In this document: piece by piece, positions 2,536 through 48,395 of the stretch
Numbering within the stretch: the stretch's first letter is position 1
Layout of the letters: the number at the start of each line of letters is the position of its first letter
Virus record (IMG/VR): IMGVR_UViG_3300047275_000458
Span: 1 to 58,660 of that record
DNA length: 58,660 bases
Direction: 5' to 3' (one strand)
From: a virus
Lineage: Duplodnaviria > Caudoviricetes
Notes under the pieces: model-generated
Seen by the model: only the letters and a program-made list of their open reading frames with translations
Databases searched by the model: none
Told to the model about the DNA's origin: nothing
Made by a program: the position numbers and the translations under genes

Positions 2536-4653
2536 ATGGAACAAGGGATAAATATTACCTCTGAGACAGCCCCCGGTGTGACAAACATCGGTGGTATTGT
2601 GCCCGTTAAGTCTGTAAAACAGCTAATGGACGAGCAGCGCGAAGCTGCTAATCGTGCTAATTCTGAGCCGGTTATTCAAAACTTGGCTGCGTATATTAAA
2701 CAGAAGTGGTATTACTCTCGATTTTCCAAAGAAATGACAATCGAGCAGCGCATGCTAAAAAGCGTGCGGCAGCGTCGTGGGGAATACGATCCTGATTTGT
2801 TGGTGCAGTTGCGCGAACAGAATTCCAGTTTGATTTATATGATGTTGACTTCCAACAAATGCCGTGCGGCGTCCAGTTGGTTGCGCGACGTATTACTTAC
2901 AGATTCCAAAGATAAACCCTGGTCGCTAAAGCCTAACCCCATCCCTGAAATGCCTCCTCCGGTCCTGCAAGGGCTGATGCAGCAGGCACAGCAGAAACTG
3001 ATGGCGTTTATGCAAACCGGTGTTAATCCCACCGATCAAGAAGTACGGCAGATTTTGCTTGATTTTAAAGACCAGGCCATGGGTGAGTTAACCGAGTTGG
3101 CGAAAGAAGACGCTAACCGGATGGAAAGAAAAATGCATAGTCAGTTGTTAGATGGACAGTGGACGACAGCGTTTGCACAGTTTATTGATGATTTGGTGAC
3201 GTTCCCGTGTGCAATTATTAAAGGGCCGGTTGTACGGTCTAAGCCTCACATGAATTGGGTTCCTGTTGGGGATTCGTACGAACTACGAGTGCAAAACGAA
3301 TTATCGTTGGAGTGGGAGCGAGTTGATCCGTTTAATATCTACCCCGCCCCAGATGCATCTCATATTGATGACGGTTATCTAATTGAGCGTCATCGCTTGC
3401 AGCGTGCCGATTTAGTCGGAATGCTGGGGGTTGAAGGATATAGTGACGGTGCTATCCGTGCCGTGCTTGAAGAATACGGTAAAGGAGGCTTACGTGACTG
3501 GATTTATGTTGACCTTACAAAGGCTGCTGCAGAAGGTAAAAGCACGGTTGCAGCCGGGCAAAACCCCTCGGAGCTCATCGATGCCCTCCAATTCTGGGGA
3601 AGTGTCCAAGGGCAACTCCTCCTCGACTGGGGCCTCACGGAAGAAGAAGTCCCGGACCCGCTCGCAGAGTACCCCATCGAAGCGTGGCTTATCGGCCGCT
3701 GGATCATCAAAGCGGTCATCAACCCAGACCCGCTCGGCAGAAAGCCGTACTACAAAACGTCCTACGAAGAAGTCCCCGGCGCGTTCTGGGGGAACTCGGT
3801 AGCTGATCTGTGTCGGGATAGTCAGTCCATGTGTAACGCCGTAGCGCGTGCGCTCGTGAACAATATGAGCCTAGCCTCCGGCCCGCAGGTTGTATACAAC
3901 ATTGATCGTTTGCCTCAGGGCGAAAACATTACACAACTATTCCCATGGAAAATTTGGCAAGTCACGAGCGACCCTCTCAATGGAAATGCCCGGCCTGTGG
4001 AGTTTTATCAGCCCGACTCGAGAGCGTCAGAACTTATGGCGGTGTACGAGAAGTTTGCAGTTCTTGCGGACGAATATACTGGGATTCCTCGCTACATGAC
4101 GGGTGGCAACCCATCGGGCGGCGCAGGCCGAACGGCTTCGGGGATGTCCATGCTGATGACGAACGCCGGAAAGTCAATCAAGCAAGTGATTGCTAACATC
4201 GATGAACACGTAATTAAACCGCTTATTGACAGGTTGTACTATTACAACATGCGTTACAGCGACGATCCAGATCTGAAGGGCGACGTAAATATTCAAGCCC
4301 TTGGCGCGGCAAGCCTGATGGAGAAAGAAGCCATTCAGCAGCGTCAGAACGAATTCCTAGGTATTGCCTTGAACTCTCCAGTTGCCCAGCAAGTCATAGG
4401 CATGGAAGGTGTAGCAGAATTGCTACGGCAGGCTGCTAAGCGCCTAGATATGAACGTGGATGATATTGTGCCACCCGAAGACGTAGTTAAGCGTAAAGTT
4501 ATGGAAGCCAACGCAATGCAGCAAGCGCAAATGATGGCTAACCAACAAAACGGGCAAGCACAAGCTGGTGGTACACCACCGGTACCCGGACCGGACCAAG
4601 GCTTACTGATGGATGGATCGCCGCAAACAAGTCGATTTACTCCATCGGCCTAG
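2536..4653 (+). CDS. Portal protein (P22-like size)
   Basis: 705 aa after terL; ERVDPFNIYP and RTASG motifs; Q-rich C-terminus. Confidence 0.88.
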   Translation: MEQGINITSETAPGVTNIGGIVPVKSVKQLMDEQREAANRANSEPVIQNLAAYIKQKWYYSRFSKEMTIEQRMLKSVRQRRGEYDPDLLVQLREQNSSLIYMMLTSNKCRAASSWLRDVLLTDSKDKPWSLKPNPIPEMPPPVLQGLMQQAQQKLMAFMQTGVNPTDQEVRQILLDFKDQAMGELTELAKEDANRMERKMHSQLLDGQWTTAFAQFIDDLVTFPCAIIKGPVVRSKPHMNWVPVGDSYELRVQNELSLEWERVDPFNIYPAPDASHIDDGYLIERHRLQRADLVGMLGVEGYSDGAIRAVLEEYGKGGLRDWIYVDLTKAAAEGKSTVAAGQNPSELIDALQFWGSVQGQLLLDWGLTEEEVPDPLAEYPIEAWLIGRWIIKAVINPDPLGRKPYYKTSYEEVPGAFWGNSVADLCRDSQSMCNAVARALVNNMSLASGPQVVYNIDRLPQGENITQLFPWKIWQVTSDPLNGNARPVEFYQPDSRASELMAVYEKFAVLADEYTGIPRYMTGGNPSGGAGRTASGMSMLMTNAGKSIKQVIANIDEHVIKPLIDRLYYYNMRYSDDPDLKGDVNIQALGAASLMEKEAIQQRQNEFLGIALNSPVAQQVIGMEGVAELLRQAAKRLDMNVDDIVPPEDVVKRKVMEANAMQQAQMMANQQNGQAQAGGTPPVPGPDQGLLMDGSPQTSRFTPSA
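3581..3802 (+). CDS. Overprinted +1-frame Ser/Arg/Lys-rich protein (73 aa) inside portal
   Basis: GGAG, 7 nt, ATG 3581; only 3 of 74 overlapping portal codons end in T; the bias ends at TAG 3800-3802. Confidence 0.7.
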   Translation: MPSNSGEVSKGNSSSTGASRKKKSRTRSQSTPSKRGLSAAGSSKRSSTQTRSAESRTTKRPTKKSPARSGGTR

Positions 4654-4656
4654 GTG

Positions 4657-4685
4657 TTGACGTAGTAATTTTTTAGTGGTATATA
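4657..4685 (+). promoter_or_regulatory. Sigma70-type promoter for head genes
   Basis: TTGACG, 17 nt, TATATA, with TG extension, in an AT-rich intergenic gap. Confidence 0.6.
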
Positions 4686-31100: not shown

Positions 31101-34100
31101 CCTTGGCTTGGCAGAGTGGGTCGAACTGTCTGAAGCCCAGCAAGCACTAGTCTTGCGTCTGGATGATCCGTCTACGCTAACCATGCGTAACGTTGAGAAG
31201 ATTCTTGCGCTTGAAGACGATACCCGCACTATTGACGTTGAAGCCCGTGAAGTTAGCCCGGGTGAGCGTCGTATGATTGAAAACGGAATAAAACAGCTTC
31301 CAAACACACAAGTTGCTACCCTAGAAAAACATTACGGGGCGAAGTCTGGAACAGCAGAGTTTATTAGCAAACTCGCTACTGATGTAACTAACTATATTAA
31401 CAAAGGCGCTGAGTCTGTTGCCGCTGCCATCCGTGGGATTATTAAGTCCATGGCAGAAGGTATGGTTGCTTTTGGCCTAGTATTTAACCCGGCTATTCAA
31501 TACAGTGGTTTTGACTATAACGTTGAAGCCATATACGAAAAAGCAAAAGAACAGAAAACGCAAGTACCAGCTAACGCTAAAGCCAAGATGTCTCCTCTGG
31601 CTCAGGCTGTGTACCGCGATATGGCTGCTACAGCCAAGAAAACCGGCAAGGGCTTTATGATTGCCGACAAACAAGCGGGTATGATCCACGCGTTTAACGC
31701 TGATGGCAGTCTACTAGTCCAAGACAGCGCTTTGTTTGGCAAAGATATCGGTGACAAAGTAACTACGTCTTCGTTCCAAGGTGGGCCAAAGATTACCCCC
31801 GCCGGGAAATTTACGCTTAAAGTTTCTAAAGATGAGAGTTATGCTGGCGGTTATGTGCTTGGCATGGAAGAAACGTACGATGCAGGCGAAGGCAGTTGGG
31901 TGGCTATCCACGCCGCATACTTAGGCAACACCGGTGAAAAACGCCTTGAGCGTTTAGCCAGTGGAGACGCCAAGGAAAAGCGTGTTAGTTATGGATGTAT
32001 TAATACTACTCACGACACATTCCTTAACAAGTTTAAGCCAAACCTCGATAAGTTTGATGGTGGTATGGTATTTGTGCTGCCCGAAGAAACAGTAAATATT
32101 GCCGCTGCTAAAACAGGCAAGGTTCAGTTTTCTAAAAAGGTAGCCGCTGGAGGTTCAAAAGCCTCAGACGTTCGGAAAAAACTTCGTAACTTTATTGGCG
32201 CAGAAAATGAAGCTCGGATGCAGGTGTATCAGAGTATTGACGAAATTCCTGTTGACATACAGAAAAAAGTTGAAAAAGCTTCTGGCGAAGCCATTACTTC
32301 GAATACGCAAGGATTTATTGTAGATCGGAAAGCATATCTAATTGCTGACAATATTAGCCCCGGAACTGAACGGGCTGTGTTTATGCACGAAGTTGGTTCC
32401 CACCTGGGTTTGGAAAATATCCTTACCGAAGAACAATTTGACAAGTTAGTAGACACTCTTCTTGAATGGTCTGGTCGGCAAGATGATTCTCTAGAATGTA
32501 CTTTAGCTACTAAAGCGTTGGTTCGAGTTATTGACGCTAACAGCACAGATGCGCAACGTAATAGTGAAATGGTTGCGTATTTTATTGAAGAAGCGCTGCT
32601 TGCTGGTGTCAACCCTAAAGCTGTTGCTGAAGGAACAGGGTTTGCGTCTTGGTTCCGTACACTATGGTCAGCGTTTAAGCAGGGTATTCGCAAACTGAAT
32701 TTGTTTAATCCAGACAAAATGAATGCCACAGATATTATTAATATGGCATACGGAGCAGCACGCTTGGAGATTGCGGGTACTTGGCACGGGACTGCTGCTG
32801 AGTTTCGCCGGTTTAATCATATGTATATGAGTACTGGTGAAGGGGCTCAAGCTTATGGCTGGGGAACGTACTTAGCGCAACGGTTTGGTATTGCTTACGA
32901 ATACATGACTTCTGATGTTAGTAGAAAAACAAGAACTGAATTTACTTGGCAAAATCCAGAAGCCGTTCAAGTTTATTTTGAAAATCATCCATTAACTAAC
33001 ACAAAAGCTAAAGAAAAAATTTACGATCTAAACACTCAAGGGCTTTTAGTTCAAAAAGGATATCCTATTGAGCCGGAAGATTTAGCACGAATGTATGTAA
33101 GTGGTCATTATTTCGACAGTGCTAGCATTTCTGCTAAGCCTTTGTGGGTTCCAGTTACTGTTAACGGCAAAACATATACCACAAAAGATTTACAGTGGTC
33201 AGAAAAACAAATTAAACCTGCTGGAACAATGCTTCGGGTAGATGTTAATGCTAAGCAAGACGAACTGCTTAACTGGGATATCTCTCTGGCTAAACAACCT
33301 AGTATCTTAAACAAACTTGAAAAAGTATTTACAGAAGAGCTAGAAGTAAATTACGGCTTACGGTCTTGGATTACTAACCAAATAACAAAGTCTTTGAATT
33401 TTTCAGATTTAACTGGGCAAGAGTTGTATTTAACTTTGCAAGAAATTATTAAAAATTACAACCTTGCTCGGTATTACAAGCAAGACATTAGTTTGGAACA
33501 GATGTTCTTTATTGATGCAATAGAAGAAAATGCAGCACTTAAAGTTCAAAAGTATGAAACTGATGAAGTTGTATCAACATTTTTAAATGGCATTGGTATT
33601 AAAGGTCTTAAATTTTTAGACGCTCGCAGCCGTAAAAAATCAAAATCTTTCTATATTCAAAAGCTAGAAGAAGCTGAGTCAATTATTGAAGATTTTGAAG
33701 CGTGGGATGGTAAAACTCCTCGCTCTTACCCTTCTTGGGCAAAAAATACTGAGAAGCAAGCAGAATATATTGCAGATCTCAAATATAAATTATCTCAGGC
33801 CCCAGAAGATTCTGAATTAACACGCAACCTTGTTGTGTTTAGCGACAAAAATATTGTACGCGTAGCATCTTTGCAAGGGGGCAGTCAACAGGAAGTTAAG
33901 TTTAGTATTCGCCCTCTTGACCGTGGCACAGTAGAGCGCAATATCCGCAAACTTCCTTCTGGGCTACAGGGGCCAACACGCTCAACGTTTATTTCCCTGG
34001 CAAATTTTGCCCGTAAGGGTATGGATTACGTCGCATTTACCCCGGTGATTATTGACCGTGCGGTTAAGGCTGGTCTGACTGCTGCCAACAAATACCTCCG

Positions 34101-36711
34101 TCTAAACCAAGAACGGGGTCAGATGGCAAAGCAGATGGAAGAAGATGTACAGCGTATTGTGGATATGTACGCCAACGTGCCTGCAGAAAACCGTGGCACG
34201 GGTGATCGTAGCGTAAACCGTTACATATTTGACTCCACCCGCCGTGGGGTATGGGGGTTCCAACCTACCAATCGCAGCGACAAAGTAGATGTTGACCCTG
34301 AGTTGTCAATTCGCTTTAAACGTCTATCTCCTGAAGCCCAAGCATTTATCCGTGCCGTATTTAAGCATGGCGATGACATGCTGGCGCTAAAAAAGAAAAC
34401 CGTCATGGAGTTTACAAACTCGGAGTACGACGCAGCCATCGAGCAAGCCAAGAAAGACGGCGACGCCAAACTAGAAGCCTCCCTGACGGCAGACAAAAAA
34501 GCTGACCTTAAGAAATTTGACAGCTTGTTTAAGTTGCGTGAGGGTATACCCTATGCTCCGATCAAGCGTATCGGTAAGTACGTAGTGATTGCCAAGTCAG
34601 CAGAATACCGACAGGCAGAGCGTGATGGTGATGCTAAAAAGTTGCGTGACCTTGAAAAAGATCCTGACCATTACCATGTCACATTCAAAGATACGGAAGC
34701 CCAGGCTCGTGCGCTGCAACAATCTTTGGTTGATGAAGGACATTTTGGCGGGGATGAGGCTGTAGAAATAGGTGAGCGCGATCAATACGAAAACGAGTTA
34801 TACGGCGGTAACAATATCCTGCAAGCCTTGACTAAACTGCGTTCACAGATTGACGCCCGGGCAAGTTCTGAAAAAGCTGATGAGCGTGCGGGTGCTGCCA
34901 CGATGCGTCGTATTGTAACGGACTTGTACTTAGAGTCTTTGGCAGAAGCCAGCGCTCGGAAAAACGAAATGCGTCGTAAGGGCGTATCTGGTGAAGTTGA
35001 TATGCTCCAGTCGTTTGGGCTACAAGGTGCTGCCGATGCGCGGTTTCTGTCCGCCCTCCAATATGATAAACAGACGCAAGATGCTATTCAAGAAATGCGT
35101 GGACAAGTACGCACAGGTGGTGGTGATAGGTTACGGAAGTCGGAGTTGTATAACGAACTGATGGCGCGGTATGCACAGACGTTAGACTTTGAACCCATGC
35201 CGGTCACTCAAAAGCTTAACCGATTAACCTCTGTATGGTTCTTGGCGACTAGTCCGGGATACTACCTACAAAACTTAACCCAGCCATACATGATGTCGTT
35301 ACCTTTGATGGCGGCAAAACATGAAATTGGTAAATCTTCGACGGCACTGTTTAAGGCATATACTGAACTGGGCGAAGTATTTAAGAGCGCCAAGTTGTTT
35401 GAGCAGCAGTTTGACTACAGTAAAGTGCCTGCTGATGTTCGCCAAGCCATTAAGACTTTGGTTGATCGAGGCCGTATTGATATTGGTATTGATACCGAAC
35501 TTGGCAACGCACGGATTGAAGGTGCTGGTGCATTTGAAGACCGCTGGAATAAAGTAGATAAAGGTCTACGGCTTGCTGTTCAGAAAGTAGAGATTCTAAA
35601 CCGTCTATCTACTGCGATTGCAGCCTATCGGTTAGAAATGGCAAAGTCTGGTAGCGCCGCTAAAGCCCTGCAGTATGCGGACGACATTCTTGTGGATACC
35701 CATGGCGACTACAGCGCGTTTGCTGCACCGCGAGCATTTAATACAAATATTGGTAAAGTTGCTCTCCAGTTCCGTAAGTTCCAGTTGATCCAGTTAAGCT
35801 TGATGTCAAAGCTAATTAAAGATGCCTACACAGGTAAAGATCGAGCCGTTGCCGTAAAAGCCCTAACTTACATCCTAGGTAACACGGCTGTTATGGCTGG
35901 TGTGCTTGGGTTGCCCGGTATGTCAGCCATTGCTTGGATACTTGGTCAGTTACTAGGCGATGACGACGAGCCGTTTATTCTTGAGAAAGAATTGCGGGAG
36001 TATATTGGGGACGAGGATCTTGCCAACATAATTACGCGTGGCGTACCTACAGTGGCGGGGGCAGACTTGTCGGGTAAGATTGGTATGGGAAATATGTTGT
36101 CAGTCTTACCGTTTACCGAGATTGACAAACTAAATGGTGAGAAAACTGCAGAGATTATTGGTACGTTGATAGCGGGCCCTGCTGGTGGATTGTTGGCCCG
36201 GGGTGCGGATGGCGCTGCATACATGGCTAACGGCGATTACTGGAAGGGTTTGGAGTTGATGACCCCGAAGGGTGTTGGGGATGCCATGAAGGCTTATCGT
36301 ATTGCGAATGAAGGTGTAACCAACAATCGTGGGGATGTGTTGTTACCGCCCGAAGAACTAGGCGATCTGGACACTATTTGGCGGGCGTTTGGTCTTTCCC
36401 CTGTTAAACAGACAGTGCGGTCTGCTAAGCAAGGGTTTAAAATAGACTACGAAGCAAAATACGAAGCTCAGTCTGGGGAAATTAAGAGAGACTATATTCG
36501 GGCAGTCAAGGAAAATGATAACGAGGCCAAAGAAGAGGCTCGTCAGAAATGGAAGAAACTGCAGGAAGCACGCAAGCGCAATGGCTTTAAAGTTCAGCCA
36601 TTGTCTGAGTTGTTGACTTCTCCAAGAGAGCAGCGTAAGCGTGAGCGTAAGACCGTAGGGGGTGTGCAGTTTGACACCGGATCACGTAGGTTTGTGGAAG
36701 GATTACAGTAA
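28114..36711 (+). CDS. Giant polyvalent internal virion protein (L,D-transpeptidase-like, metallopeptidase, ART-like and PLxRFG-like domains)
   Basis: IHAAY...SYGCIN; MHEVGSH; WHGT...TGEGAQAYGWGTY; YAPIKRIGKY. Confidence 0.8.
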   Translation: MAIYFDDSGGSDAFNPADWGVSTKPAKRGVLGAANDYVINAANLILGGTKSIVDFAQPGTELASQIEALIREGQEKQSDVTKRAKQELGQSIEEGGMEALKGVGKYVVQSPGLAISEAIGSFVVPGIAIKGAGLLGRATGAGERAIAAGRAAGPLRAADEAALAARGVRPYEITAGVASGAALSGGDAAGDAYQQVYESQINLGVNPDEAKRLATEAARKASIVPAVIGGVTGILGAEAQLFSGAKRSGSSILKSAGSEALQEAVEEGSTKLSANLAAMQYGVDTTPMRGVVGAAALGGALGGITGGGVAFATRRQSGSLLQASNDNLTGNLTPDDDGIKSAINEDRQMSLFSAEELMPQVVARESELINPYNVGGYVGAQQAGLDTGLQFTSTGGQQNMVFGAGPVQQIQTGTGQAAAPAAQATQPQAKPTASGQQTPQVDPQILSETGQRYGLTQSQMPGTGAAVVNIGGRNVYGTNSVKQFLTELTIADEGKSDIQRQMEAAVFKSGTMSVQPTITAKALSAAATKQLEKLQINEADSLETAAQILNDQIRALGDANKKATDKNVETLARTYEALTGSVSPAFTQILEGATNVQNGQKQQVSTGVGAVSVGGGAPAGGTGLNVQPTNVQSQQPGSQPSGQNIVQNVPGGEGGARPGGGGPIDTNVSVGSEAAPSQVTEGTPTEKEDFAKKLFVDVFGERDGLIVYDLLEVTGNQSVIAAKYDIDRTVVSKIKNKYFESNTGKQSKALWFKPKYQAALKNEVIAQGRSLQDVYTFLSNESEAQKEMEDLIIKDFEVEPAVEGAEDTTPTSAEEQGAIAPVMGEGLLEDKSETTADERDTNLTFVGSEKGLSQTSDVSEKSNWRSSIKKNRKNLKNVSDAHLQDAAMAALEGKVDDKTLLEDITAELKRRETVARASKAGRETIETQEEEDAVQEPSPEKVDVRKQAGDGRAVAKRDTEKQAVAEEDEVSDELATREEDAEDAWNSLVTSKEVEALGLAEWVELSEAQQALVLRLDDPSTLTMRNVEKILALEDDTRTIDVEAREVSPGERRMIENGIKQLPNTQVATLEKHYGAKSGTAEFISKLATDVTNYINKGAESVAAAIRGIIKSMAEGMVAFGLVFNPAIQYSGFDYNVEAIYEKAKEQKTQVPANAKAKMSPLAQAVYRDMAATAKKTGKGFMIADKQAGMIHAFNADGSLLVQDSALFGKDIGDKVTTSSFQGGPKITPAGKFTLKVSKDESYAGGYVLGMEETYDAGEGSWVAIHAAYLGNTGEKRLERLASGDAKEKRVSYGCINTTHDTFLNKFKPNLDKFDGGMVFVLPEETVNIAAAKTGKVQFSKKVAAGGSKASDVRKKLRNFIGAENEARMQVYQSIDEIPVDIQKKVEKASGEAITSNTQGFIVDRKAYLIADNISPGTERAVFMHEVGSHLGLENILTEEQFDKLVDTLLEWSGRQDDSLECTLATKALVRVIDANSTDAQRNSEMVAYFIEEALLAGVNPKAVAEGTGFASWFRTLWSAFKQGIRKLNLFNPDKMNATDIINMAYGAARLEIAGTWHGTAAEFRRFNHMYMSTGEGAQAYGWGTYLAQRFGIAYEYMTSDVSRKTRTEFTWQNPEAVQVYFENHPLTNTKAKEKIYDLNTQGLLVQKGYPIEPEDLARMYVSGHYFDSASISAKPLWVPVTVNGKTYTTKDLQWSEKQIKPAGTMLRVDVNAKQDELLNWDISLAKQPSILNKLEKVFTEELEVNYGLRSWITNQITKSLNFSDLTGQELYLTLQEIIKNYNLARYYKQDISLEQMFFIDAIEENAALKVQKYETDEVVSTFLNGIGIKGLKFLDARSRKKSKSFYIQKLEEAESIIEDFEAWDGKTPRSYPSWAKNTEKQAEYIADLKYKLSQAPEDSELTRNLVVFSDKNIVRVASLQGGSQQEVKFSIRPLDRGTVERNIRKLPSGLQGPTRSTFISLANFARKGMDYVAFTPVIIDRAVKAGLTAANKYLRLNQERGQMAKQMEEDVQRIVDMYANVPAENRGTGDRSVNRYIFDSTRRGVWGFQPTNRSDKVDVDPELSIRFKRLSPEAQAFIRAVFKHGDDMLALKKKTVMEFTNSEYDAAIEQAKKDGDAKLEASLTADKKADLKKFDSLFKLREGIPYAPIKRIGKYVVIAKSAEYRQAERDGDAKKLRDLEKDPDHYHVTFKDTEAQARALQQSLVDEGHFGGDEAVEIGERDQYENELYGGNNILQALTKLRSQIDARASSEKADERAGAATMRRIVTDLYLESLAEASARKNEMRRKGVSGEVDMLQSFGLQGAADARFLSALQYDKQTQDAIQEMRGQVRTGGGDRLRKSELYNELMARYAQTLDFEPMPVTQKLNRLTSVWFLATSPGYYLQNLTQPYMMSLPLMAAKHEIGKSSTALFKAYTELGEVFKSAKLFEQQFDYSKVPADVRQAIKTLVDRGRIDIGIDTELGNARIEGAGAFEDRWNKVDKGLRLAVQKVEILNRLSTAIAAYRLEMAKSGSAAKALQYADDILVDTHGDYSAFAAPRAFNTNIGKVALQFRKFQLIQLSLMSKLIKDAYTGKDRAVAVKALTYILGNTAVMAGVLGLPGMSAIAWILGQLLGDDDEPFILEKELREYIGDEDLANIITRGVPTVAGADLSGKIGMGNMLSVLPFTEIDKLNGEKTAEIIGTLIAGPAGGLLARGADGAAYMANGDYWKGLELMTPKGVGDAMKAYRIANEGVTNNRGDVLLPPEELGDLDTIWRAFGLSPVKQTVRSAKQGFKIDYEAKYEAQSGEIKRDYIRAVKENDNEAKEEARQKWKKLQEARKRNGFKVQPLSELLTSPREQRKRERKTVGGVQFDTGSRRFVEGLQ
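29897..30151 (+). CDS. Overprinted +1-frame protein (84 aa) inside the giant gene
   Basis: AAGGAG, 6 nt, ATG; the host frame is a low-complexity linker; ends AAKPRRRK. Confidence 0.55.
   Translation: MYKMDKNSKCLPGWEQFQSVEERQRAVQDLMFNPQTFNPSNQEASLADRTSSKMSPAEKVEHGLEVVDPSTPMFLLAAKPRRRK
30908..31078 (+). CDS. Overprinted +1-frame basic protein MPFKSQAQKKWMYANKPEMAERWQKETPK... (56 aa), not in the ORF track
   Basis: AGGAGG, 6 nt, ATG; resembles a small phage protein type I recall as free-standing (unverified). Confidence 0.75.
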   Translation: MPFKSQAQKKWMYANKPEMAERWQKETPKNKPLPKKMKSATNSQPAKKTPKMRGTA

Positions 36712-36893
36712 TGGCTACTACAAAATCTAAAGTCAATCAGGCTGGGGTGTATACCAAACCGGGTATGCGCAAAGGTTTGTTTAACAAAATTAAGGCTGGA
36801 ACAAAAGGCGGTGATCCTGGTGAATGGTCAGCGCGTAAAGCTCAGTTGCTGGCTAAAGAATATAAATCTAAGGGTGGAGGGTATAAAACGTGA
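36711..36893 (+). CDS. Small basic protein
   Basis: TAATG coupling; YTKP.MR..LF..IKAG.KGG..GEWSARKAQLLA..YK..GGGY. Confidence 0.8.
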   Translation: MATTKSKVNQAGVYTKPGMRKGLFNKIKAGTKGGDPGEWSARKAQLLAKEYKSKGGGYKT

Positions 36894-38903: not shown

Positions 38904-41843
38904 TTAAGTATTTACTGTTTGGCTACCTTCAAGTTTAGATCCCGTATGTACTGTAAGTTTTGGCGTCTGAACACCCTGTGCCTCCAGTTTCACCATGTCT
39001 ATCTCTACACACCGATGCTGACCGGCTGAGACTTTAGTACCCCTACCCACGTTGAACTTATCCTTAATCTCCTTGGCAACTCCTGCTGCCGAGGCATAAT
39101 CCATAAGCGACTTGTAGTCCACGCGATGTTGCAAGCACCAATCTGAGATTTCCTTGCGGATTAAAAACAGTTTTCCCGAGATCGGATCGTTCTTAGTGGC
39201 GTTGGATCCCATGATGTACCGACCAGCGGGAGGCCCGCCATAGATTCTGTTACAGTCTTCAGGGCCACGACCATCTCGCCCATCTCGATACTCTGTAGTA
39301 ACCATAACCCGAGCAGACAACTCGTTTAGCATACGGTTGAACGCTTCCTCAGATGTAATGGAGTTTTGTTCCTGAACGTTACTTGCCAACTCAAAGAATA
39401 AAGTTTTGATAAATGCATACACGCCTTCGGAATCAAAAGCAGTAATCTTTAGTTCATTACAGATCTCCAGTGCTACCATAGCCGTCATGGCTTGACTGCG
39501 GTAAAAGCGATACTTCACATCAGGAATATCTTCCTGTAGACGTTTACCCCAGTGACCAAGGCGCTTCATAACGTCGTCAAGATTCTGTACCACATATTGT
39601 ACAAATGCTTCGCCAGCCACACCCTTATTGAGGGCGATTCGTTTCATGGCTACATCTACCTCAGCACCAATATTTGGTAGTGGTCTACGATCTACGTCGA
39701 CCTGAATCATACGCACAGCCTCCGCCTCGGTGTTGCTCTGACGTGAAGCTAACAGGGAATGTAGATTTGTATTAGCAGTCAGAAAGACAGTCATCTCCCA
39801 AGTCTGAGACTCGGCAAACCGCACTCCGCTACCTTTACCCGTTGTTAATCGTTGCCGTTCTTGACCCGAACTAACTGCGTAGCACAACTTGGATAGCGTC
39901 TCAGCCTCGATGTTTGTTACTTCGTCGTACAGTACTGGGATGTGGTTATGCACCCCGATGTGTGCGTACAAAGCGTTGATCGTAGCCTGCTCTGCTTTTA
40001 TGGCAATCTTGTCTGCGTCACCAAATGCGTAAAGACCTGAATAGCACGTTGTGGTTTTGCCCTTACCAGACTTACTGCTGATGATCGCAAATACAATACC
40101 TTTATAAAGAGTGTCGCAAAACGGTGTAAGGATTGAACCAAATGTCGAAGCCACGATGTACTGCATGTGCTCCATGCCGGGACGGGAATACAAAAAGTTA
40201 ATTGCGTCTGCATACACCTCTAACTTACCGTTCGGGGTTGGAAACTCTTGAATCTTATCCTCGGCGTAACTCCCAACCAAAACTTTCCGAAGTGCGCCAT
40301 CCCGATGGTATAGCCGATCACCAAGCAAGAACGACTGATACTCATTCTTCCATCCAAAGTTTGTGTATGTATTTAGTTCCTCTGCTTCTCGTTTAAGTTT
40401 CTCGAGCGAGTCACGGAGGTACGCTGTCATGTGCATAGCAGAATCCTTGTGATTCGTTGGTATTAATTCGTACTTGGCAAGAGCCTCAATGGTTTTCTGA
40501 TTTGATGCTAAAACTTGTGTATCAATATCAAAATCTCGAACGCGGTTATCAGGCAAGTGCAAACGCAAGCCAACGCTAAACTCACCATTCTCTTTACAGA
40601 TACGGTGAATGGGGTAGAACAGATTGTTGGAGAACACAAACGCATGCATGATGTCGTCTTTGTCCTTCATGTATCTGCTCATCACATTGTTTTCGTGCCC
40701 GTACCCTTTAGGTAATTCTGGAACCTGAAAGGTAATTGTCTTGCCTTCCACTGAGGCGACCACTTCAGAAACTTCCGGTTCCGGTTCTTTCCTCCCAAGC
40801 ACCAACGGCGTTTTAATTTTGCCTTTATGAGGACACTCCATACACCCCGCCGGATTGCACTTGGAGAAGAACTCACATGTTGTTGGGGGTGAGCCCCAAG
40901 TATCGAATTTCGTAGTAACGTCGTTTTGCGTGTGCCCGGTTTCCTCACGTCGTTCGCTCCATTTGTGCGCTAAGTCAATACCTTCGTCACAGTATTTAAT
41001 AATTCCAATAACACCGCGCCAATGTTCGTAACCAACGTCACCTTGCGTATCCCGCATCAGCGCAACCTGTGAGCATTTGTCTGCTACAAGATCAGCCGAG
41101 GCAGGCACATTCTGTATTTGGGGTAGATGTGCAATGAGGTCATCGTTAAGATTACTTACTGGCTTAGGCGCCTGGACATCAACTTGAAACTTAAGCTGTG
41201 CATCTTTGAGCAACTTAGCAAACTGCCGAGGATCAACAACAACCACCGACGTTTTCATACTTACGGGTTTGGTCGAATCGTATTTCTTATTAGTTGCTCC
41301 CGCAGGGCGTAGGATGGAAGCAAAGTCTGCCGTTCTTGTAGGGTCAACCCGAAAGTTTAAGTATGTGCAAAGAGCCTTTAAGACCTCTGCTAGTTTGACC
41401 CATGTATCCGAACGGATACACTTTTCTAAAGTCCAATAGCCGTGAATGCCATAGCCTGAATCTACAATCATTGGCATGGGCAAACCAGTTTCAAGGCAAA
41501 ACTTCCCTAACTCTGAGACTGCTTCTTTCTTGGTTAGATAGCCTTCACCGCTAGCAAACTTGTCTTCGCCGCAATCAATGTCTACCCAAAATGATTTGGC
41601 TTTGAGCCAATTAGCAGGCTTGCGATACTTCTTCTTACCATCAATTTCTACAAATTCTGATTGGTAGGCAGCGCACGCATGGTAAACCTGTACTGGTTTT
41701 TTATCCCAGTACGCAACAGACTTCGCCATTTCCTCAAGTGAGGTGTATGGTCTGTGTGCTACCCGCCCATCAGGATTAATGAGGGCAAGATATTTAACGC
41801 CATCCTCCGGGAGGATAGCCCGTAAAAACTCAAGGGTGTCCAT
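38904..41843 (-). CDS. Primase-helicase (primase, PriCT-2-like, Zn site, DUF927-like helicase)
   Basis: FWVDID, SG.G.H.YW, YEHW, C...C..CPH, SGKGKTT Walker A, LYDE. Confidence 0.85.
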   Translation of the reverse strand: MDTLEFLRAILPEDGVKYLALINPDGRVAHRPYTSLEEMAKSVAYWDKKPVQVYHACAAYQSEFVEIDGKKKYRKPANWLKAKSFWVDIDCGEDKFASGEGYLTKKEAVSELGKFCLETGLPMPMIVDSGYGIHGYWTLEKCIRSDTWVKLAEVLKALCTYLNFRVDPTRTADFASILRPAGATNKKYDSTKPVSMKTSVVVVDPRQFAKLLKDAQLKFQVDVQAPKPVSNLNDDLIAHLPQIQNVPASADLVADKCSQVALMRDTQGDVGYEHWRGVIGIIKYCDEGIDLAHKWSERREETGHTQNDVTTKFDTWGSPPTTCEFFSKCNPAGCMECPHKGKIKTPLVLGRKEPEPEVSEVVASVEGKTITFQVPELPKGYGHENNVMSRYMKDKDDIMHAFVFSNNLFYPIHRICKENGEFSVGLRLHLPDNRVRDFDIDTQVLASNQKTIEALAKYELIPTNHKDSAMHMTAYLRDSLEKLKREAEELNTYTNFGWKNEYQSFLLGDRLYHRDGALRKVLVGSYAEDKIQEFPTPNGKLEVYADAINFLYSRPGMEHMQYIVASTFGSILTPFCDTLYKGIVFAIISSKSGKGKTTTCYSGLYAFGDADKIAIKAEQATINALYAHIGVHNHIPVLYDEVTNIEAETLSKLCYAVSSGQERQRLTTGKGSGVRFAESQTWEMTVFLTANTNLHSLLASRQSNTEAEAVRMIQVDVDRRPLPNIGAEVDVAMKRIALNKGVAGEAFVQYVVQNLDDVMKRLGHWGKRLQEDIPDVKYRFYRSQAMTAMVALEICNELKITAFDSEGVYAFIKTLFFELASNVQEQNSITSEEAFNRMLNELSARVMVTTEYRDGRDGRGPEDCNRIYGGPPAGRYIMGSNATKNDPISGKLFLIRKEISDWCLQHRVDYKSLMDYASAAGVAKEIKDKFNVGRGTKVSAGQHRCVEIDMVKLEAQGVQTPKLTVHTGSKLEGSQTVNT

Positions 41844-43550: not shown

Positions 43551-45134
43551 GGGGTTTTCACCATCTTCTTTCATCATGTCTAGCAATAGCCCTTGCAACT
43601 TTTGTTTAGTCTGTAATCGTTGATAAATTCGTCTCTCAATTTCTGACCCTGCAAGATGGACAATCACTGTGGTTTTAGTCTGTCCGGGTCGACGCACTCG
43701 GGCACAAGCCTGTTCGTATATATCGTTGGAATAAATCGGGGCAAACCAAATAATATTTGTAGCCGCAGTCAGAGTCAGACCGTGCGACATAGTTCCCGGA
43801 TTAGCCACTAGAATATGCAACGAATCCTGTTTATCTTGGAAACGATGAAAGATCGTATCTCTGTTGTGCTTGGAAGTTTCACCGTGCACCGCAGCAACTT
43901 CCCATTTCTTTGATAGCCGTTCTACTACCTGCTCAAGAACTGCCGTAAGTGGTACGAATACAATTACTTTGCCCTCAGATTCTTCAATCGCTTCTTCGAG
44001 GACTTCCATACGGGGCTGGCAAGGAATGTGTAAAGTAGATCCATCAGAAGCGTAGGCAACTCCGCAGGCAATCTGTACCAACTTATTTGCTTTAACCGCC
44101 TCGTTGACGGCAAGGATCTGTCCCCCGTCGAACTCAGTAGCGAGTTTGGATACCATGTCTTTGTAGGCTTTCTTTTGCTCATCCGTCATCTCCGCATCAC
44201 GGCTAATAAATATCTGTGGGGGTAAGTCAACGCAGTCATCTAAGGCAAACCGTATCGCAGGCTGCATGACTTGCTTAACAATGTCCGCAGCGTTATCCCG
44301 TGGGGCCCACTTGTACTGACTTAGTTGTTTCATTGTCAAATCCCGGAACTTACCAAAGTACGCAGGCAAGTCGGGGTTGGTTGGCGTTACTGCACGGCAC
44401 TGCGCCCATGCATCTGTCGGTGCGTTTGGGGTTGGTGCGCCTGTCAGAGCCCACACACGGCGGGTAACTTTCTGTTTGTTCAGTATGGTGTTTAGGGTCT
44501 TCCAACGGGTTGTGCTTGAGTTTCTGAACGTGGCAATCTCATCGACAATTACTAAGTCAATGTCGTCTCGAACGGCAAGTTGTGCCTCAATAGTCTTTAG
44601 CCCGTCTGTATTAATTATATACAGATGTGCATTTTGACCGAGAAGTTTGACTCGTCTTAAGTGGGTGCCGTATAAGACTGTAGCGTCTAGATGGGGGAAA
44701 GTCTTAAATACCTCGTCAGCCCAAGTACGTTCCATCGTCGACAGGGGGCAAACTATTAACGCCTTGCGCACTAATCCCGCCTTACGCATGTAGTCATACG
44801 CATATAGACTAGATACCGTCTTACCCATACCCATCGAGTTCAAGCAAAAGCATCGACTGTTCATGGATAAAAAGTTTGCCGTTTCTATCTGCGCCGCGAA
44901 TGGCTTAAACCGCCCACTAGCCAACGGGAAATCGTAATGCGTCTTAAGTGGGTCAGGGATACCATCGTAGCCCAACGTGCGTAGCACCCGTGTTTCATCA
45001 GGGCGATGTGGTACAGCCACAAGATCAAATCCGTTGTGGCGTACTAGTTTAGCGGTTGGTATTACTGTGGTAACTCTACTTGGTTCTTTTAGTTTTAGTA
45101 TTACGGCTTTCTTGTCCTTTAGGATCGTAGCCAT
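43548..45134 (-). CDS. SNF2-family (SF2) helicase
   Basis: MGMGKT, VIVDE, LTGAP, GLTLT.A, QA..RV.RPGQ. Confidence 0.92.
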   Translation of the reverse strand: MATILKDKKAVILKLKEPSRVTTVIPTAKLVRHNGFDLVAVPHRPDETRVLRTLGYDGIPDPLKTHYDFPLASGRFKPFAAQIETANFLSMNSRCFCLNSMGMGKTVSSLYAYDYMRKAGLVRKALIVCPLSTMERTWADEVFKTFPHLDATVLYGTHLRRVKLLGQNAHLYIINTDGLKTIEAQLAVRDDIDLVIVDEIATFRNSSTTRWKTLNTILNKQKVTRRVWALTGAPTPNAPTDAWAQCRAVTPTNPDLPAYFGKFRDLTMKQLSQYKWAPRDNAADIVKQVMQPAIRFALDDCVDLPPQIFISRDAEMTDEQKKAYKDMVSKLATEFDGGQILAVNEAVKANKLVQIACGVAYASDGSTLHIPCQPRMEVLEEAIEESEGKVIVFVPLTAVLEQVVERLSKKWEVAAVHGETSKHNRDTIFHRFQDKQDSLHILVANPGTMSHGLTLTAATNIIWFAPIYSNDIYEQACARVRRPGQTKTTVIVHLAGSEIERRIYQRLQTKQKLQGLLLDMMKEDGENP

Positions 45135-46503: not shown

Positions 46504-46538
46504 GGGTTCTCCAAGTGGTTATGCGCCAAACCGTGTTT

Positions 46539-48395
46539 TTACGATTTCGCGTCTCCATAATTGTATGAAAAACCACCTTCACAGGCAACTGGTAAATCAG
46601 AAGCCCACTTGGGAGGAGTGTGCATGACATCTTCCATCAGTTTCAGGCAGGCTTGAGCGAATCCGTCAGGCACACACGCAACCACTTCGTCATGCACCGT
46701 CAGTACAACTTTAAATCGGTACTCGGAAGTATCCAGTTTGCGCAAGGCTTGATCAATCTTTGCCATCTGATCAAACACAACGATCCGGGCTAGGGCTTGG
46801 ACTACGTTCTCTACCACCTTACCCCCGTAAATATTGACGGGGCCATAGCGCCCATCGTAGACAAACCCCTCAGACGTTTTGCGCAAGTTGGGGTAGTAAA
46901 TAAACATGCCGTTGGGCAACCATATCTTCTCGCCTATACATTTAAGTTTGATACCTGTACCAAACTCATACTCATACCCGCTAGTCATCTTGGCAAGCGC
47001 GGTGTCAGCTTCCTTCCACAAAGCGGCAACATAAGAATACTTCTCTCTATAGAGTTTGACTATGCGTTCTGCATCTTCGATAGGCAGATCCACTGATACG
47101 CCTGCCTGCCCAATCTTGAGCGTAGACTTAAACTTGTCTTTGCCCATGCCGTAGCCTAGCCCCAAGATACAAGTCTTGCCTACAAAGCGTTCTATTTTGT
47201 CTACAGACTTATCGATTGTCCGTCCGTAAACTTCAGTCGCAAATTTGGAATAGATGTCGATTTTGTTTCGGAAATCATCAAGTAAATCGATTTGCCCTGC
47301 AAGCCACGCGACAACCCGCGCTTCGATCTGCGACGAGTCACACGCGACCAACGCATGATTTTGCGGTACAGATATGGATTTCCTAAGACTTCCTCCCCTT
47401 GGAAGATTCTGCAAGTTAATTTTGTCCCCGCCACTTGCGCGACCAGTATGAGCCCCGTAGTAATTGAGAAGTATAGGTAGCGCACCTCGCTTAGCGATGG
47501 CAATGAACGATTCAGTGCGCGTCTCTTCCAAAGTTGATTTGACGCCAAGTCGCGCCGAGACAACGGCTTGCACGCGGGGATCGTCATGCTCCAACAAAGC
47601 CTTGAACTCACTATCGGTCTTACCAAAGGCATAGGTTTCCTTTCCGGTACGTAGGCTAGTCTTTGTGGGCGGTTCAACGCCTAACTTGCGTAGTACCTCA
47701 GCAAATTGTGGATTAGACATTAGGTTATCTCTGCCAATGCTAGCATCGATACGTTCCATTAACGTCTGCTTTTTCGTACGAATGTTTACAAGGTGTTGCT
47801 CTAATACATCCTCACGAAGCTGTAACACAGGATCAATAAACATCCTAAGCATCAAATCAATAATGTATTGCTCCTTTGGCGTGGAGTATTGTTGCAGCAC
47901 CCTATACAACGTGTAAGTAAGTTCCACGTCGTTTATGCAATAGTCTGCATAGGCTTGCATTTCCTCAGGCGTAAAGTCTGCTCCATGTTTACCAATGGCA
48001 TTGAGTGCTTCCTTGCCCTTCTCACCAAGTACAAACTTCTTAACCAGTTTGTCAAGCGAACCGCCTACCGTCAAACCCGTGATAGGTCGCGACATGCTTA
48101 GCGTGTCAAGGTAATACTTAGGCTTAATCCCGAAGTGCCAATTGAGGATTGCCCCATCAAACGCCATGTTGTGCGCCAATAGGTAAGAGTCCTCAATTCT
48201 AAACTGCGACAGGAACGCCTTGATCTGTGCGTGCGTACCGCTACACCATTGCGTCTGCTGATCGGCTATCTTGACTGCTACACCAATAACTTCAAAACGT
48301 TTGTCGCGGATATAGGCTTCTGTGGTTAACTTCTTGAGCCCATATTCCTTGTCGTAGTATGTTTCGAAGTCAATGGTAATAATGTTAGTCGTCAT
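46539..48395 (-). CDS. DNA polymerase, family A, with 3'-5' exonuclease
   Basis: DFETYY, HN..FD, HTGR, NLQN, D.SQIE.R, K...LG..YG, VHDE. Confidence 0.93.
   Translation of the reverse strand: MTTNIITIDFETYYDKEYGLKKLTTEAYIRDKRFEVIGVAVKIADQQTQWCSGTHAQIKAFLSQFRIEDSYLLAHNMAFDGAILNWHFGIKPKYYLDTLSMSRPITGLTVGGSLDKLVKKFVLGEKGKEALNAIGKHGADFTPEEMQAYADYCINDVELTYTLYRVLQQYSTPKEQYIIDLMLRMFIDPVLQLREDVLEQHLVNIRTKKQTLMERIDASIGRDNLMSNPQFAEVLRKLGVEPPTKTSLRTGKETYAFGKTDSEFKALLEHDDPRVQAVVSARLGVKSTLEETRTESFIAIAKRGALPILLNYYGAHTGRASGGDKINLQNLPRGGSLRKSISVPQNHALVACDSSQIEARVVAWLAGQIDLLDDFRNKIDIYSKFATEVYGRTIDKSVDKIERFVGKTCILGLGYGMGKDKFKSTLKIGQAGVSVDLPIEDAERIVKLYREKYSYVAALWKEADTALAKMTSGYEYEFGTGIKLKCIGEKIWLPNGMFIYYPNLRKTSEGFVYDGRYGPVNIYGGKVVENVVQALARIVVFDQMAKIDQALRKLDTSEYRFKVVLTVHDEVVACVPDGFAQACLKLMEDVMHTPPKWASDLPVACEGGFSYNYGDAKS

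Follow-up and report, generated by a model that had tools for sequence, protein, structure and literature searches.

Genes 4 and 19 of phage T7 contain the out-of-frame genes 4.1, 4.2, 19.2 and 19.3, for which we know of no demonstrated conservation or function. Rz1 of phage lambda, a lipoprotein of the outer membrane, carries a signal sequence and a lipobox and acts with Rz in lysis. It has its own ribosome-binding site and is conserved among phages, and a single late mRNA probably yields both Rz and Rz1. The Rz1 gene of this spanin pair is embedded in the +1 frame of Rz, according to the passages of PMC5295617 that treat it. The classic cases of overprinted genes, in phiX174 and small eukaryotic viruses, are presented in the relevant sections of PMC8227390 as de novo births under genome-size pressure. 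The internal virion proteins of podoviruses (the IVP-D class) are very large, mosaic proteins with variable passenger modules, and the passages of Hardies et al. (PMC4819975) searched for overlapping or embedded reading frames describe no out-of-frame passengers.

The window analyzed here, the complete 58,660-bp record, is podophage-like. An earlier note had proposed that basic peptides, nucleic-acid-binding and possibly protamine-like, are overprinted in the +1 frame of core genes throughout the genome. The present analysis makes it highly probable that the general +1 pattern is a by-product of composition and that two of the ORFs, both within one giant gene, are genuine overlapping genes. 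No published description of these nested genes was found in the literature searched.

The giant ORF (28114..36711, + strand, 2865 aa) lies in the internal-virion-protein module. Residues 1984-2850 matched PHROG 10089, named DarB-like (E 1.5e-63), and residues 8-313 matched phrog_18222; searches of Pfam (E<=0.001) and of PDB sequences (E<=0.01) found nothing. The gene upstream, 22886-24706, matched phrog_511, "internal virion protein" (E 2.7e-159), and the giant protein would have a role in ejection. Immediately downstream of the giant ORF on the same strand are three free-standing small basic genes, already noticed earlier, at 36711-36893, 36890-37120 and 37129-37383. They matched phrog_17747 (E 2.2e-34), phrog_14910 (E 7.4e-37) and Pfam DUF6321 (E 2.8e-19), respectively, and had homologues in the related genome G001 (82%, 86% and 55%), the third also in G002 (79%) and G004 (76%). 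A fourth free-standing gene reported at 246 was checked for existence alone and is present.

The first nested gene, of the family designated PGWEQ, occupies 29897..30151 (+ strand), shifted by +1 relative to the giant ORF, and encodes 84 residues from an ATG that follows a Shine-Dalgarno-like hexamer, AAGGAG (29885..29890), by 6 nt. It overlaps residues 595-680 of the giant protein, a stretch rich in Gly, Val and Gln (also Ser, Pro and Asn). A search of 1.84 billion representatives recovered ten relatives at E<=0.001, the best at 7.6e-14, and at 51 of 51 IMG/VR loci the gene was nested in the same relative frame, within a same-strand frame open for 667-2121 codons. In 41 unique sequences the ATG was conserved, with AAGGAG or a near variant (CAGGAG, TAGGAG, AAGGAA, AAGGAC) 6 nt upstream. 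The peptide has no Pfam match at the gathering level, and its AF2 model is helical (mean pLDDT 73.8).

The second nested gene, of the family designated MPFKS, lies at 30908..31078 (+ strand), again in the +1 frame, and encodes 56 residues from an ATG located 6 nt after the Shine-Dalgarno-like hexamer AGGAGG (30896..30901). It overlaps an acidic segment of the giant protein (residues 932-989, net charge -10). The description of these two peptides as basic suits the second (pI 10.6, net charge +12), but the first, with a pI of 8.9 and a net charge of +2, is not notably basic. Of 133 candidates, 130 qualified as relatives with E<=0.01 and a best value of 1.4e-12; their aligned portions were 43-93% identical. 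IMG/VR contained 373 relatives. The window copy retains all 11 invariant alignment columns, including Met1. The AF2 model (pLDDT 78) has two helices, at 6-15 and 17-26. No Pfam match reached the gathering level, and the best PHROG match was phrog_1375 at an E of only 0.027.

MPFKS counted as nested where the giant frame stayed open for at least 300 codons to each side. Among 83 sources, 25 were nested, 9 lay in ORFs of medium length with the identical frame offset, 41 were free-standing or otherwise placed and 8 were missed by the motif, two of which, G002 and G004, proved to be nested. Nesting was found in 24 of 80 kept loci and in G002 and G004, and in every case the small ORF is offset by +1 from the giant one; since the search for MPFKS and PGWEQ loci started from the small proteins, these nesting frequencies are not population estimates. 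Of the giant ORFs fetched through PGWEQ, 41 of 45 also carry MPFKS, 888-1683 nt downstream.

The pattern of variation sets the two overlaps apart from the rest of the giant gene. The entropies at codon positions 1, 2 and 3 within the PGWEQ overlap were 0.938, 0.703 and 1.075 in the small frame and 1.092, 0.962 and 0.736 in the giant frame; for 55 unique nested MPFKS copies they were 0.910, 0.786 and 1.149 in the small frame and 1.079, 0.829 and 0.749 in the giant frame, all of these comparisons counting sequences, not independent events. Four giant-frame windows flanking PGWEQ gave 1.21-1.33, 0.98-1.18 and 1.59-1.68 for positions 1, 2 and 3, and the flanks of MPFKS were likewise canonical (1.50, 1.37 and 1.78; 1.51, 1.42 and 1.75). 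Of the pairwise MPFKS differences, 41% were synonymous when read in the small frame and 16% when read in the giant one. The giant frame was open over PGWEQ in 40 of 40 unique cases versus 11.6 expected, and over MPFKS in 23 of 23 versus 12.1 expected. When 1665 alternative-frame segments from 86 giant ORFs were clustered without bias, PGWEQ and MPFKS formed the largest clusters, and their own third position was the most variable. Judged by these comparisons, both ORFs are conserved small genes, overlapped alike in dozens of IMG/VR contigs, and this part of the earlier proposal, two SD-led +1 genes at 29897 and 30908, is borne out by conserved families with a coding signature of their own. A tblastn search of 50,697 isolated-phage records with both window peptides gave no match, and a family member closer to the consensus gave weak matches only (E>=1e-3).

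We infer translation of the small frames, their co-expression with the giant gene, any function shared with its product and the succession of evolutionary events. Ribosomes would initiate internally on the late mRNA of the giant gene, so that the 84-residue and 56-residue proteins would be made alongside the giant protein; a search for sigma-70-like promoters between 29400 and 31300 found none. Selection would act mainly on the small frames while the giant frame is also kept open, giving dual-coding stretches. Both small genes sit where the giant protein is of low complexity, Gly/Val/Gln-rich in one case and acidic in the other. The MPFKS overlap more likely arose when the giant gene engulfed an existing gene, because the family also occurs free-standing and as the N-terminal module of larger proteins. 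The PGWEQ family, nested in every locus inspected, may for that reason have been born in place.

Both ORFs could instead be silent relics, engulfed as a fusion of neighboring genes created the giant ORF and now untranslated. Capture by fusion fits the free-standing MPFKS genes found right behind long ORFs, as in locus L097, where the preceding frame is open over at least 1332 codons; some nested copies (L081 and L091, for example) have no recognizable SD motif, and MPFKS has been lost from G001 and G003. G003 lacks both nested genes, so that neither is indispensable. An untranslated copy, however, would drift to the giant-frame pattern and accumulate stops, whereas none of the 55 unique nested MPFKS or 41 unique PGWEQ copies is broken; they vary predominantly at their own third positions and, in both families, conserve their start signals. 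We therefore regard loss of expression as very unlikely.

A second alternative is that the ORFs are compositional by-products, and the two families alternative-frame shadows of a conserved segment of the giant protein. Alternative-frame peptides of conserved genes do match between relatives by blastp (many did for terminase, portal, helicase and polymerase), and alternative frames may have been miscalled as the "proteins" in the database. True shadows, however, keep the host third position most variable, as in clusters 5, 8, 9, 12, 13 and 15 and in 11 tested regions, while in both overlaps it is the least variable (0.736 and 0.749 versus 1.59-1.78 in the flanks). Moreover, of the MPFKS genes that are not nested in a giant ORF, the giant-equivalent frame is open in 10 of 43 and closed in 33 of 43, and one member is the annotated gene 48 of Streptomyces phage FlowerPower. 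The flanks of the 27 hosts of nested MPFKS genes form 9 groups upstream and 12 downstream, between which blastp finds no link, and the Met start, the SD motif and the length are conserved. Such a shadow is extremely unlikely.

Programmed +1 frameshifting into the small frames, yielding truncated isoforms of the giant protein with a new C-terminus, would have a precedent in prfB, where an SD-like element just upstream of the shift site stimulates +1 frameshifting, and stops close the small frames just a few codons ahead of the ATG. Against it, Met1 hardly varies, if at all, and falls at the position where free-standing members of the family begin, and the 6-nt distance from SD to ATG is initiation spacing. 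In-frame stops 0-28 codons upstream of nested MPFKS allow almost no space, or none, for a shift site. This explanation is extremely improbable as well.

The wider set of claimed ORFs was compared with a null in which 70 heuristic genes, at least one of which (4740-4940) is probably called in the wrong frame, underwent 300 junction-preserving synonymous shuffles. All seven ORFs in the original claim exist, on the host strand and offset by +1. The phage has 38 +1 ORFs of at least 50 aa, compared with 39.7±4.3 in the shuffled genes; their total length is 2915 aa versus 2872 aa, and their charge per residue is 0.101 versus 0.108. The one quantity above the null was the number of ORFs with an SD-like 4-mer, 9 versus 4.25±1.9, a value reached by a fraction of 0.03 of the shuffles. 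The two giant-gene ORFs account for 2 of the 9, and a mild excess (6 versus 2.7±1.4) persisted when they were removed and starts limited to ATG. The ORFs are mostly basic, as had been stated (30 of the 38 have a pI >9), but basicity belongs to the entire +1 frame (15.5% Lys plus Arg, 3.1% Asp plus Glu). The phage genes are G-rich at codon position 1 (36.6%) and G-poor at position 2 (17.5%), so the +1 frame, with one stop per 20 codons, has few GAN (Asp/Glu) and many AAG/AGG-type codons. This codon structure alone would yield long basic +1 ORFs everywhere, with no need for selection. Among the 38 ORFs, 27 could be aligned and 11 lie in host genes that have no homologue in G001-G004; none of the 27 is open across all well-covered relatives in that group, and the only stop-free rows are two tail-fibre ORFs, 0-10% of which is covered by a single relative. 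Host third positions were equally variable inside and outside 11 tested +1 ORF regions. Most short basic +1 ORFs in the phage genes are a side-effect of codon composition.

The individual ORFs outside the giant gene conform to this pattern. The portal ORF (3431..3802, + strand; 73 aa and pI 12.0 from the claimed start at 3581, with GGAG at 7 nt spacing) has internal stops in the equivalent of 3581-3802 in 43 of 55 aligned relatives. Of the 12 relatives in which it is open, 7 have ACN in place of the ATG, four of these at 98% portal identity. The host position 3 entropy was 1.04 inside and 1.11 outside. A local patch does exist over 3581-3802 (C3 excess +21.7, T3 deficit -18.5), an extreme that 3-5% of equally long windows in the gene also reach. 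The same distortion had been claimed for endolysin, but there the skew is gene-wide (49% of windows as extreme), with no segment of elevated synonymous conservation. The endolysin ORF (20256..20606, + strand) encodes 116 aa from an ATG or 67 aa (pI 12.0) from a GTG at about 20403. SD-like motifs were as described for six of the seven ORFs, but neither start of this one has any. It contains 1-5 stops in 64 of 80 relatives (81-92% amino acid identity), and the closest (92%) has two stops. The 16 open relatives are 90% identical to the window in nucleotide sequence in that half, compared with 74.5% for the closed ones; on these alignments they are simply the nearest in nucleotide sequence.

On the - strand, the ORFs in primase (40682..40948; 88 aa from a GTG, GGAG at 8 nt spacing), helicase (43964..44182; 72 aa, GGAG at 7 nt) and DNA polymerase (47201..47677; 143 aa from the ATG at 47632, with AAGGA at 5 nt, or 158 aa from a TTG at 47677) have 2-4, 2-7 and 1-8 stops, respectively, in 4 of 4 relatives each. 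The host position 3 entropies inside and outside were 1.14 and 1.20, 1.15 and 1.10, and 1.16 and 1.15, and the synonymous-codon differences 0.62 and 0.61, 0.61 and 0.59, and 0.65 and 0.61, in the same order. Pfam and PHROG searches returned no match better than E 0.087 for the set, the portal ORF matching only at E>=0.087. All five were rejected as genes, with stops in most or all relatives and no synonymous-site trace, and are compositional by-products. That functional nucleic-acid-binding mini-proteins are overprinted throughout the core genes is thus hardly credible: the ORFs, their SD-like motifs, the mild SD enrichment, the portal patch and the 16 open endolysin relatives are set against null-level count, length and charge, broken homologues, a portal ATG already gone at 98% identity and unconstrained host third positions.

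Compared with the described systems, the giant gene most resembles Rz/Rz1 in having a complete small gene inside a larger one on the same strand, in the +1 frame and with its own putative ribosome-binding site; the arrangement is likewise conserved among phages, and one late mRNA would serve both products. It differs in that inspection of the sequences found no hydrophobic leader in either small protein, the host encodes a giant virion-module protein and two nested genes lie about 1 kb apart. As in T7, small ORFs with ribosome-binding sites occur in another frame of large podovirus genes, but here, unlike anything known of the T7 ORFs, they are conserved across dozens of divergent contigs and bear a frame-specific selection signature. 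One frame is more constrained and the other compositionally odd or of low complexity, as the sections of PMC8227390 on small-virus overprinting describe. The genome, however, is 58.7 kb, and one nested family is also free-standing and a module of larger proteins, which points to capture of an existing gene and not to de novo birth. Like the IVP-D proteins in the part of PMC4819975 devoted to them, the giant protein appears to be a very large mosaic encoded after the tail genes and carrying variable passengers; the passengers described there are in-frame domains, whereas those of the giant gene are separate, out-of-frame genes.

The window is a complete virus record of 58,660 bases, with a rightward virion module that encodes the terminase, portal, major head protein, tail fibres, endolysin and internal virion proteins, and a leftward replication module that encodes the primase, helicase and DNA polymerase. 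A giant ORF of 2865 aa (28114-36711, + strand) lies inside the virion module. Translation table 11 gave well-formed genes in the window and an alternative genetic code was dropped. Portal relatives in IMG/VR ranged from 99% down to 42% identity, and four related records of 46-58 kb, designated G001-G004, were readable at full length. The nearest isolates by portal protein were Rhizobium phages, at 38% identity, and megablast of 9.5 kb of the window gave no match among isolated phages. No relatives were found with residues 701-1220 of the giant protein as the query. At 4740-4940, the +2 frame of the heuristic gene call matched open frames in all four related records (E down to 5e-15, 49-62% identity, 53 aa), so the frame chosen for this interval is probably wrong and the real gene lies in the other frame.

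An earlier note had claimed a genome-wide hidden layer of basic mini-proteins, represented by seven ORFs nested in the portal, endolysin, giant (two), primase, helicase and polymerase genes. All seven ORFs were present, each in the +1 frame of its host gene, and SD-like motifs were found at 5-8 nt for six of them, the exception being the endolysin ORF, none of whose starts had one. The synonymous codons of a heuristic list of 70 genes (55,092 nt) were shuffled in three ways, the strictest of which preserves the protein, the codon usage and all +1-frame trinucleotide counts. Under this shuffle, 39.7 ± 4.3 ORFs of at least 50 aa were expected in the +1 frame and 38 were observed, with a summed length of 2915 aa as compared with 2872 aa after shuffling, and a mean charge per residue of 0.101 as compared with 0.108. 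The plain shuffle gave a similar picture. Since ORF count, length and charge all match those of codon-shuffled genes, the hidden layer is not real. The only excess over the null was in ORFs whose first start follows an SD-like four-mer, which numbered 9 versus 4.25 ± 1.9, a value reached in 0.03 of the shuffles. Over all genes, the +1 frame encodes 15.5% Lys plus Arg and 3.1% Asp plus Glu, and has one stop per 20 codons versus one per 12 in the +2 frame. It is basic because codon position 1 is rich in G (36.6%) and position 2 has only 17.5% G. The basic character belongs to the whole +1 frame, not to individual ORFs, and SD-like motifs and basicity in this frame alone are no evidence for coding.

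The five ORFs in the core genes are not conserved genes; the relatives carry stops and the host synonymous sites are as free inside the ORFs as outside. All four related records had stops in the polymerase (1-8), helicase (2-7) and primase (2-4) ORFs, and the synonymous-codon differences inside and outside the ORF were 0.65 and 0.61, 0.61 and 0.59, and 0.62 and 0.61, respectively. For the portal ORF (3581-3802), 57 relatives were entered in the alignment, two of which were removed because of internal stops in the portal frame. The equivalent of the ORF had at least one stop in 43 of the remaining 55, and the ATG was lost in seven of the 12 in which it was open, including four contigs with a 98% identical portal. 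The synonymous-codon differences were 0.52 inside and 0.56 outside the portal ORF, and 0.50 inside and 0.66 outside the endolysin ORF, for which the outside region is very small. The endolysin gene was absent from five related records, so endolysin relatives from IMG/VR were used instead. The ORF contained 1-5 stops in 64 of 80 of these relatives (81-92% identity), with two stops in the closest. Over the half of the endolysin concerned, the 16 relatives with an open frame were 90% identical to the window in nucleotide sequence and the rest 74.5%, indicating that openness reflects shared ancestry, and raised synonymous conservation was found in no part of the gene among the IMG/VR relatives. 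The host third-position entropy did not change inside any of the 11 regions tested. Eleven of the 38 +1 ORFs lie in host genes that lack a homologue in G001-G004, and none of the aligned ORFs was open in every well-covered relative among these records.

The codon distortion that the earlier note had described over the portal and endolysin ORFs is real; it is limited to one patch of the portal gene and runs through the whole endolysin gene, and in neither is it matched by conservation. At 3581-3802, C at third positions exceeded the amino acid-matched expectation by 21.7 and T fell 18.5 below it; only 3-5% of windows of the same size in the gene were equally extreme. The Ser/Thr-rich look of the +1 peptide arises because the third base of the host codon is the second base of the +1 codon. 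One possibility is that the patch came from a recombined segment of other composition. Two further +1 ORFs, one in the major head gene (6350-6535) and one in the terminase gene (1398-1628), were open in three and two of the four related records, respectively. The host third-position entropy (0.81 versus 0.83 and 1.14 versus 1.12) was unchanged, so that both look like by-products.

When 877 alternative-frame segments were compared with the four relatives by blastp, many significant matches arose from conservation of the host protein alone. The alternative frames of conserved genes also look conserved, so similarity alone proves nothing, and stop counts, synonymous-site counts and codon-position entropy were used in its place. 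The discriminating measure was the codon position with the greatest variability. Two ORFs nested in the +1 frame of the giant ORF were distinguished in this way, the PGWEQ gene (29897-30151, + strand, 84 aa) and the MPFKS gene (30908-31078, + strand, 56 aa). In 41 unique PGWEQ sequences, the entropies at positions 1, 2 and 3 of the giant frame were 1.21-1.33, 0.98-1.18 and 1.59-1.68 over four flank windows, and 1.092, 0.962 and 0.736 over the overlap, where the small frame gave 0.938, 0.703 and 1.075. In 55 unique nested copies of MPFKS, the giant frame gave 1.50, 1.37 and 1.78 in the upstream flank, 1.51, 1.42 and 1.75 in the downstream flank and 1.079, 0.829 and 0.749 in the overlap, while the values for the small frame were 0.910, 0.786 and 1.149. 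The giant frame is thus in the normal order in the flanks and inverted in both overlaps, where the small frame is in the normal order. Of the pairwise differences within MPFKS, 41% were synonymous when read in the small frame, as compared with 16% when read in the giant one; these pair counts, like the entropies, treat related sequences as independent.

The giant frame was nevertheless open in 23 of 23 unique MPFKS copies and 40 of 40 unique PGWEQ copies, where redrawing the synonymous codons of the small ORF predicted 12.1 and 11.6, respectively. In MPFKS genes outside giant ORFs, the equivalent frame was open in 10 of 43. The giant frame is kept open even though the small frame dominates the variation, which argues that both frames are under selection. 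When 1665 alternative-frame segments taken from 86 giant ORFs were clustered blind, MPFKS and PGWEQ emerged as the two largest clusters with variability highest at their own third position; in ordinary shadow clusters the variability peaks at the host third position. Each nested ORF shows features of an embedded out-of-frame pair, 1) an ORF within a longer same-strand ORF, 2) predicted start signals of its own and 3) purifying selection in the inner frame together with an outer frame that is kept open. Of the seven hidden genes proposed in the earlier note, the two in the giant gene, at 29897 and 30908, survive as conserved ORFs with an own-frame signature and the other five do not. To judge from these comparisons, the two are real, conserved and apparently undescribed genes. 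An assembly artefact was dismissed on the grounds that more than 70 independent contigs show the nested arrangement.

Three more clusters of +1 segments, most variable at their own third position, were observed in the giant ORFs of loci fetched via MPFKS (L081-L160) and PGWEQ (L273-L323): cluster 4 (21 members, entropies 0.44/0.54/0.65), cluster 19 (5 members, possibly related to cluster 4) and cluster 14 (9 members, entropies 0.62/0.62/0.78). Clusters 4/19 and 14 may be additional nested genes in the giant ORFs of other phages.

The PGWEQ gene has AAGGAG 6 nt before its ATG in the window, and in the 41 unique sequences listed for the family the SD hexamer or a one-base variant precedes the conserved ATG by 6 nt. 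A phmmer search of 1.84 billion representatives gave 10 homologues at E<=0.001, the best at 7.6e-14, nine of which (55-99 aa) share conserved motifs and start at aligned positions. The alignment of 40 family members has 11 invariant columns, and the window peptide, used as the reference row, has all of them; it shares the family traits, namely the Pro-Gly-x-Glu, Pro-Ser-x-Gln-Glu and Arg-x-x-Ser-Lys columns, a start at Met and a size of roughly 80-90 aa. The protein has a net charge of +2 and a pI of 8.9, and the AlphaFold2 model is a small helical protein (pLDDT 73.8). In IMG/VR, each of the 51 PGWEQ loci had the small ORF at +1 of a surrounding same-strand frame that stayed open for 667-2121 codons; since the loci were fetched through the small proteins, the proportions of nested copies given here for PGWEQ and below for MPFKS are not natural frequencies. 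Among giant ORFs fetched via PGWEQ, 41 of 45 also carry MPFKS, 888-1683 nt downstream (1011 nt from ATG to ATG in the window), and only 3 of 29 of those fetched via MPFKS carry PGWEQ. G001 has PGWEQ only (2574-codon giant ORF), G002 has both genes and G003 has neither (2581-codon giant ORF), indicating that the nested genes were gained or lost among fairly close relatives (66-76% portal identity). The predicted complex of the two small proteins scored 0.00 against a mark of 0.32, which speaks neither for nor against binding.

The MPFKS gene is preceded by AGGAGG, 6 nt before its ATG in the window; a recognizable SD was present in only part of the nested loci. In a large protein collection, 130 of 133 candidates (30-98 aa) were homologous at E<=0.01 by phmmer, with a best value of 1.4e-12. 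Aligned with 21 relatives, the window peptide retains all 11 invariant columns, including the Met-Pro-Phe start, and falls within the 40-60 aa typical of the family. Pfam has no family for either small protein, nor does either have a structural neighbour. For MPFKS, DUF3008 (PF11450) was rejected, since there was no Pfam match at E<=1; the sole link is a language-model neighbour at 0.82, a cluster in which 15% of the members have DUF3008, the other clusters being unnamed. The nearest library entry, phrog_1375, matched at an E of only 0.027, so no claim of membership is made. The AlphaFold2 model (mean pLDDT 78) shows confident helices at residues 6-15 and 17-26 and, after them, a disordered basic tail, the net charge being +12 over 56 aa, and Foldseek found no match to the model in the PDB below E 6.9. 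The protamine-like role raised as a possibility in the earlier note would call for DNA binding and for strong basicity throughout the peptide; against the +12 of MPFKS, PGWEQ has only +2.

There were 373 MPFKS relatives in IMG/VR, of which 80 loci were kept. Frames were read around the gene in 83 sources, the copies being located by a sequence motif. In 25 (24 loci and the window), MPFKS has at least 300 open codons to either side in a surrounding same-strand frame, and is always at +1 of this long frame; in nine it is spanned by a medium ORF in the identical relative frame, and in 41 it is free-standing or otherwise placed. The remaining eight were not caught by the motif, two of which, G002 and G004, have a nested copy with a variant motif; the giant ORFs that hold it span 3120 codons in G002 and at least 1957 in G004. 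These copies were found by profile search, as global alignment of the mosaic giant proteins misplaced the MPFKS region. The 400-aa flanks of 27 nested copies fell into 9 upstream and 12 downstream groups with no detectable similarity between groups, and tblastn similarity to the giant protein of the window was found in only 6 of 24 nested loci. In L088, L102, L110, L113, L115, L125 and L128, and also in L095 and L096, MPFKS is spanned by a frame open for about 290-700 codons in the relative frame of the giant gene, and in most of these loci it is preceded by a frame of about 800 codons ending 170-200 nt upstream. From this layout, such loci resemble a giant gene that has been split in two, MPFKS lying towards the 5' end of the downstream portion.

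MPFKS is also found free-standing, as annotated gene 48 of Streptomyces phage FlowerPower, where its neighbours are a peptidase gene on one side and a holin gene on the other. The module occurs in 37 proteins of 104-639 aa, two of which have a Pfam domain on record (PF00226, PF13298), and it is the N-terminus of a longer protein in three IMG/VR loci; these longer proteins provided no usable functional clue. Its occurrence as a free-standing gene, within larger proteins and as an N-terminal module argues that MPFKS predates the overlap, which probably arose by gene capture and not by de novo birth. The free-standing DUF6321 gene at 37129-37383 in the window matches PHROG families whose proteins, 99-928 aa long, carry the module at their C-terminus (in phrog_3477, for example, at positions 850-928 of a 928-position profile), so small genes beside the giant gene also exist elsewhere as in-frame parts of larger proteins.

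The giant protein has neither a Pfam family nor a sequence relative in the PDB. The PGWEQ overlap corresponds to residues 595-680, rich in Gly, Val and Gln with a net charge of -1, and the MPFKS overlap to residues 932-989, with a net charge of -10. Both stretches can tolerate constraint from a second frame. No sigma-70-like promoter was found in 29400-31300, upstream of both nested genes, which suggests internal initiation on the mRNA of the giant gene. Ribosomes would start at the nested-gene starts, and the small proteins would be co-expressed with the giant protein, perhaps as partner or cargo. A programmed +1 frameshift, which would make the small frames extensions of giant-frame products, was rejected on the evidence of the starts and upstream stops; the Met start is invariant in the MPFKS alignment, at least 90% conserved in the PGWEQ alignment and common to the free-standing genes. 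In nested MPFKS loci, stops in the small frame occur 0-28 codons upstream.

A broader reading, which we put forward tentatively and consider rather doubtful as a whole, is that, in a broad group of uncultured aquatic podophages, the genes for giant internal virion proteins carry a set of out-of-frame small genes, at least these two and possibly more, in low-complexity linkers; that these are translated from internal ribosome-binding sites, so that their synthesis would keep pace with that of the giant protein, whose assembly partners or co-ejected cargo they would be; and that at least one was gained when the giant gene engulfed a pre-existing free-standing gene. If so, gene engulfment is a route to overlapping genes other than de novo overprinting. 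Gene finders drop any ORF that lies within a longer one, which hides conserved phage proteins such as these, and yet both families can be picked out in dozens of contigs by sequence analysis alone. The switch in which codon position varies most is a clear test that separates nested genes from far commoner compositional look-alikes, and the window serves as a worked example for the triage of hidden ORF claims. Two uncharacterised small proteins are added to the virion/ejection module of an abundant uncultured phage group.

In searches of the openly accessible literature, neither the MPFKS and PGWEQ families nor genes nested in giant virion-protein genes were found described; passages of PMC4819975, PMC8227390 and PMC12919940 describe neither the families nor the nested arrangement. 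In Hardies et al. (PMC4819975), internal virion proteins host in-frame passenger domains, not out-of-frame genes. The arrangement resembles that of lambda Rz1 in Rz, where a late gene likewise contains a whole second gene that is read in the +1 frame and has start signals of its own. A spanin of the Rz1 type was rejected for both peptides, which, as read from the sequence, are hydrophilic from the first residues and have no hydrophobic leader. In contrast to lambda Rz1, neither nested product is a lipoprotein, the nested genes number two, and they lie in the gene for a giant protein of the virion module.
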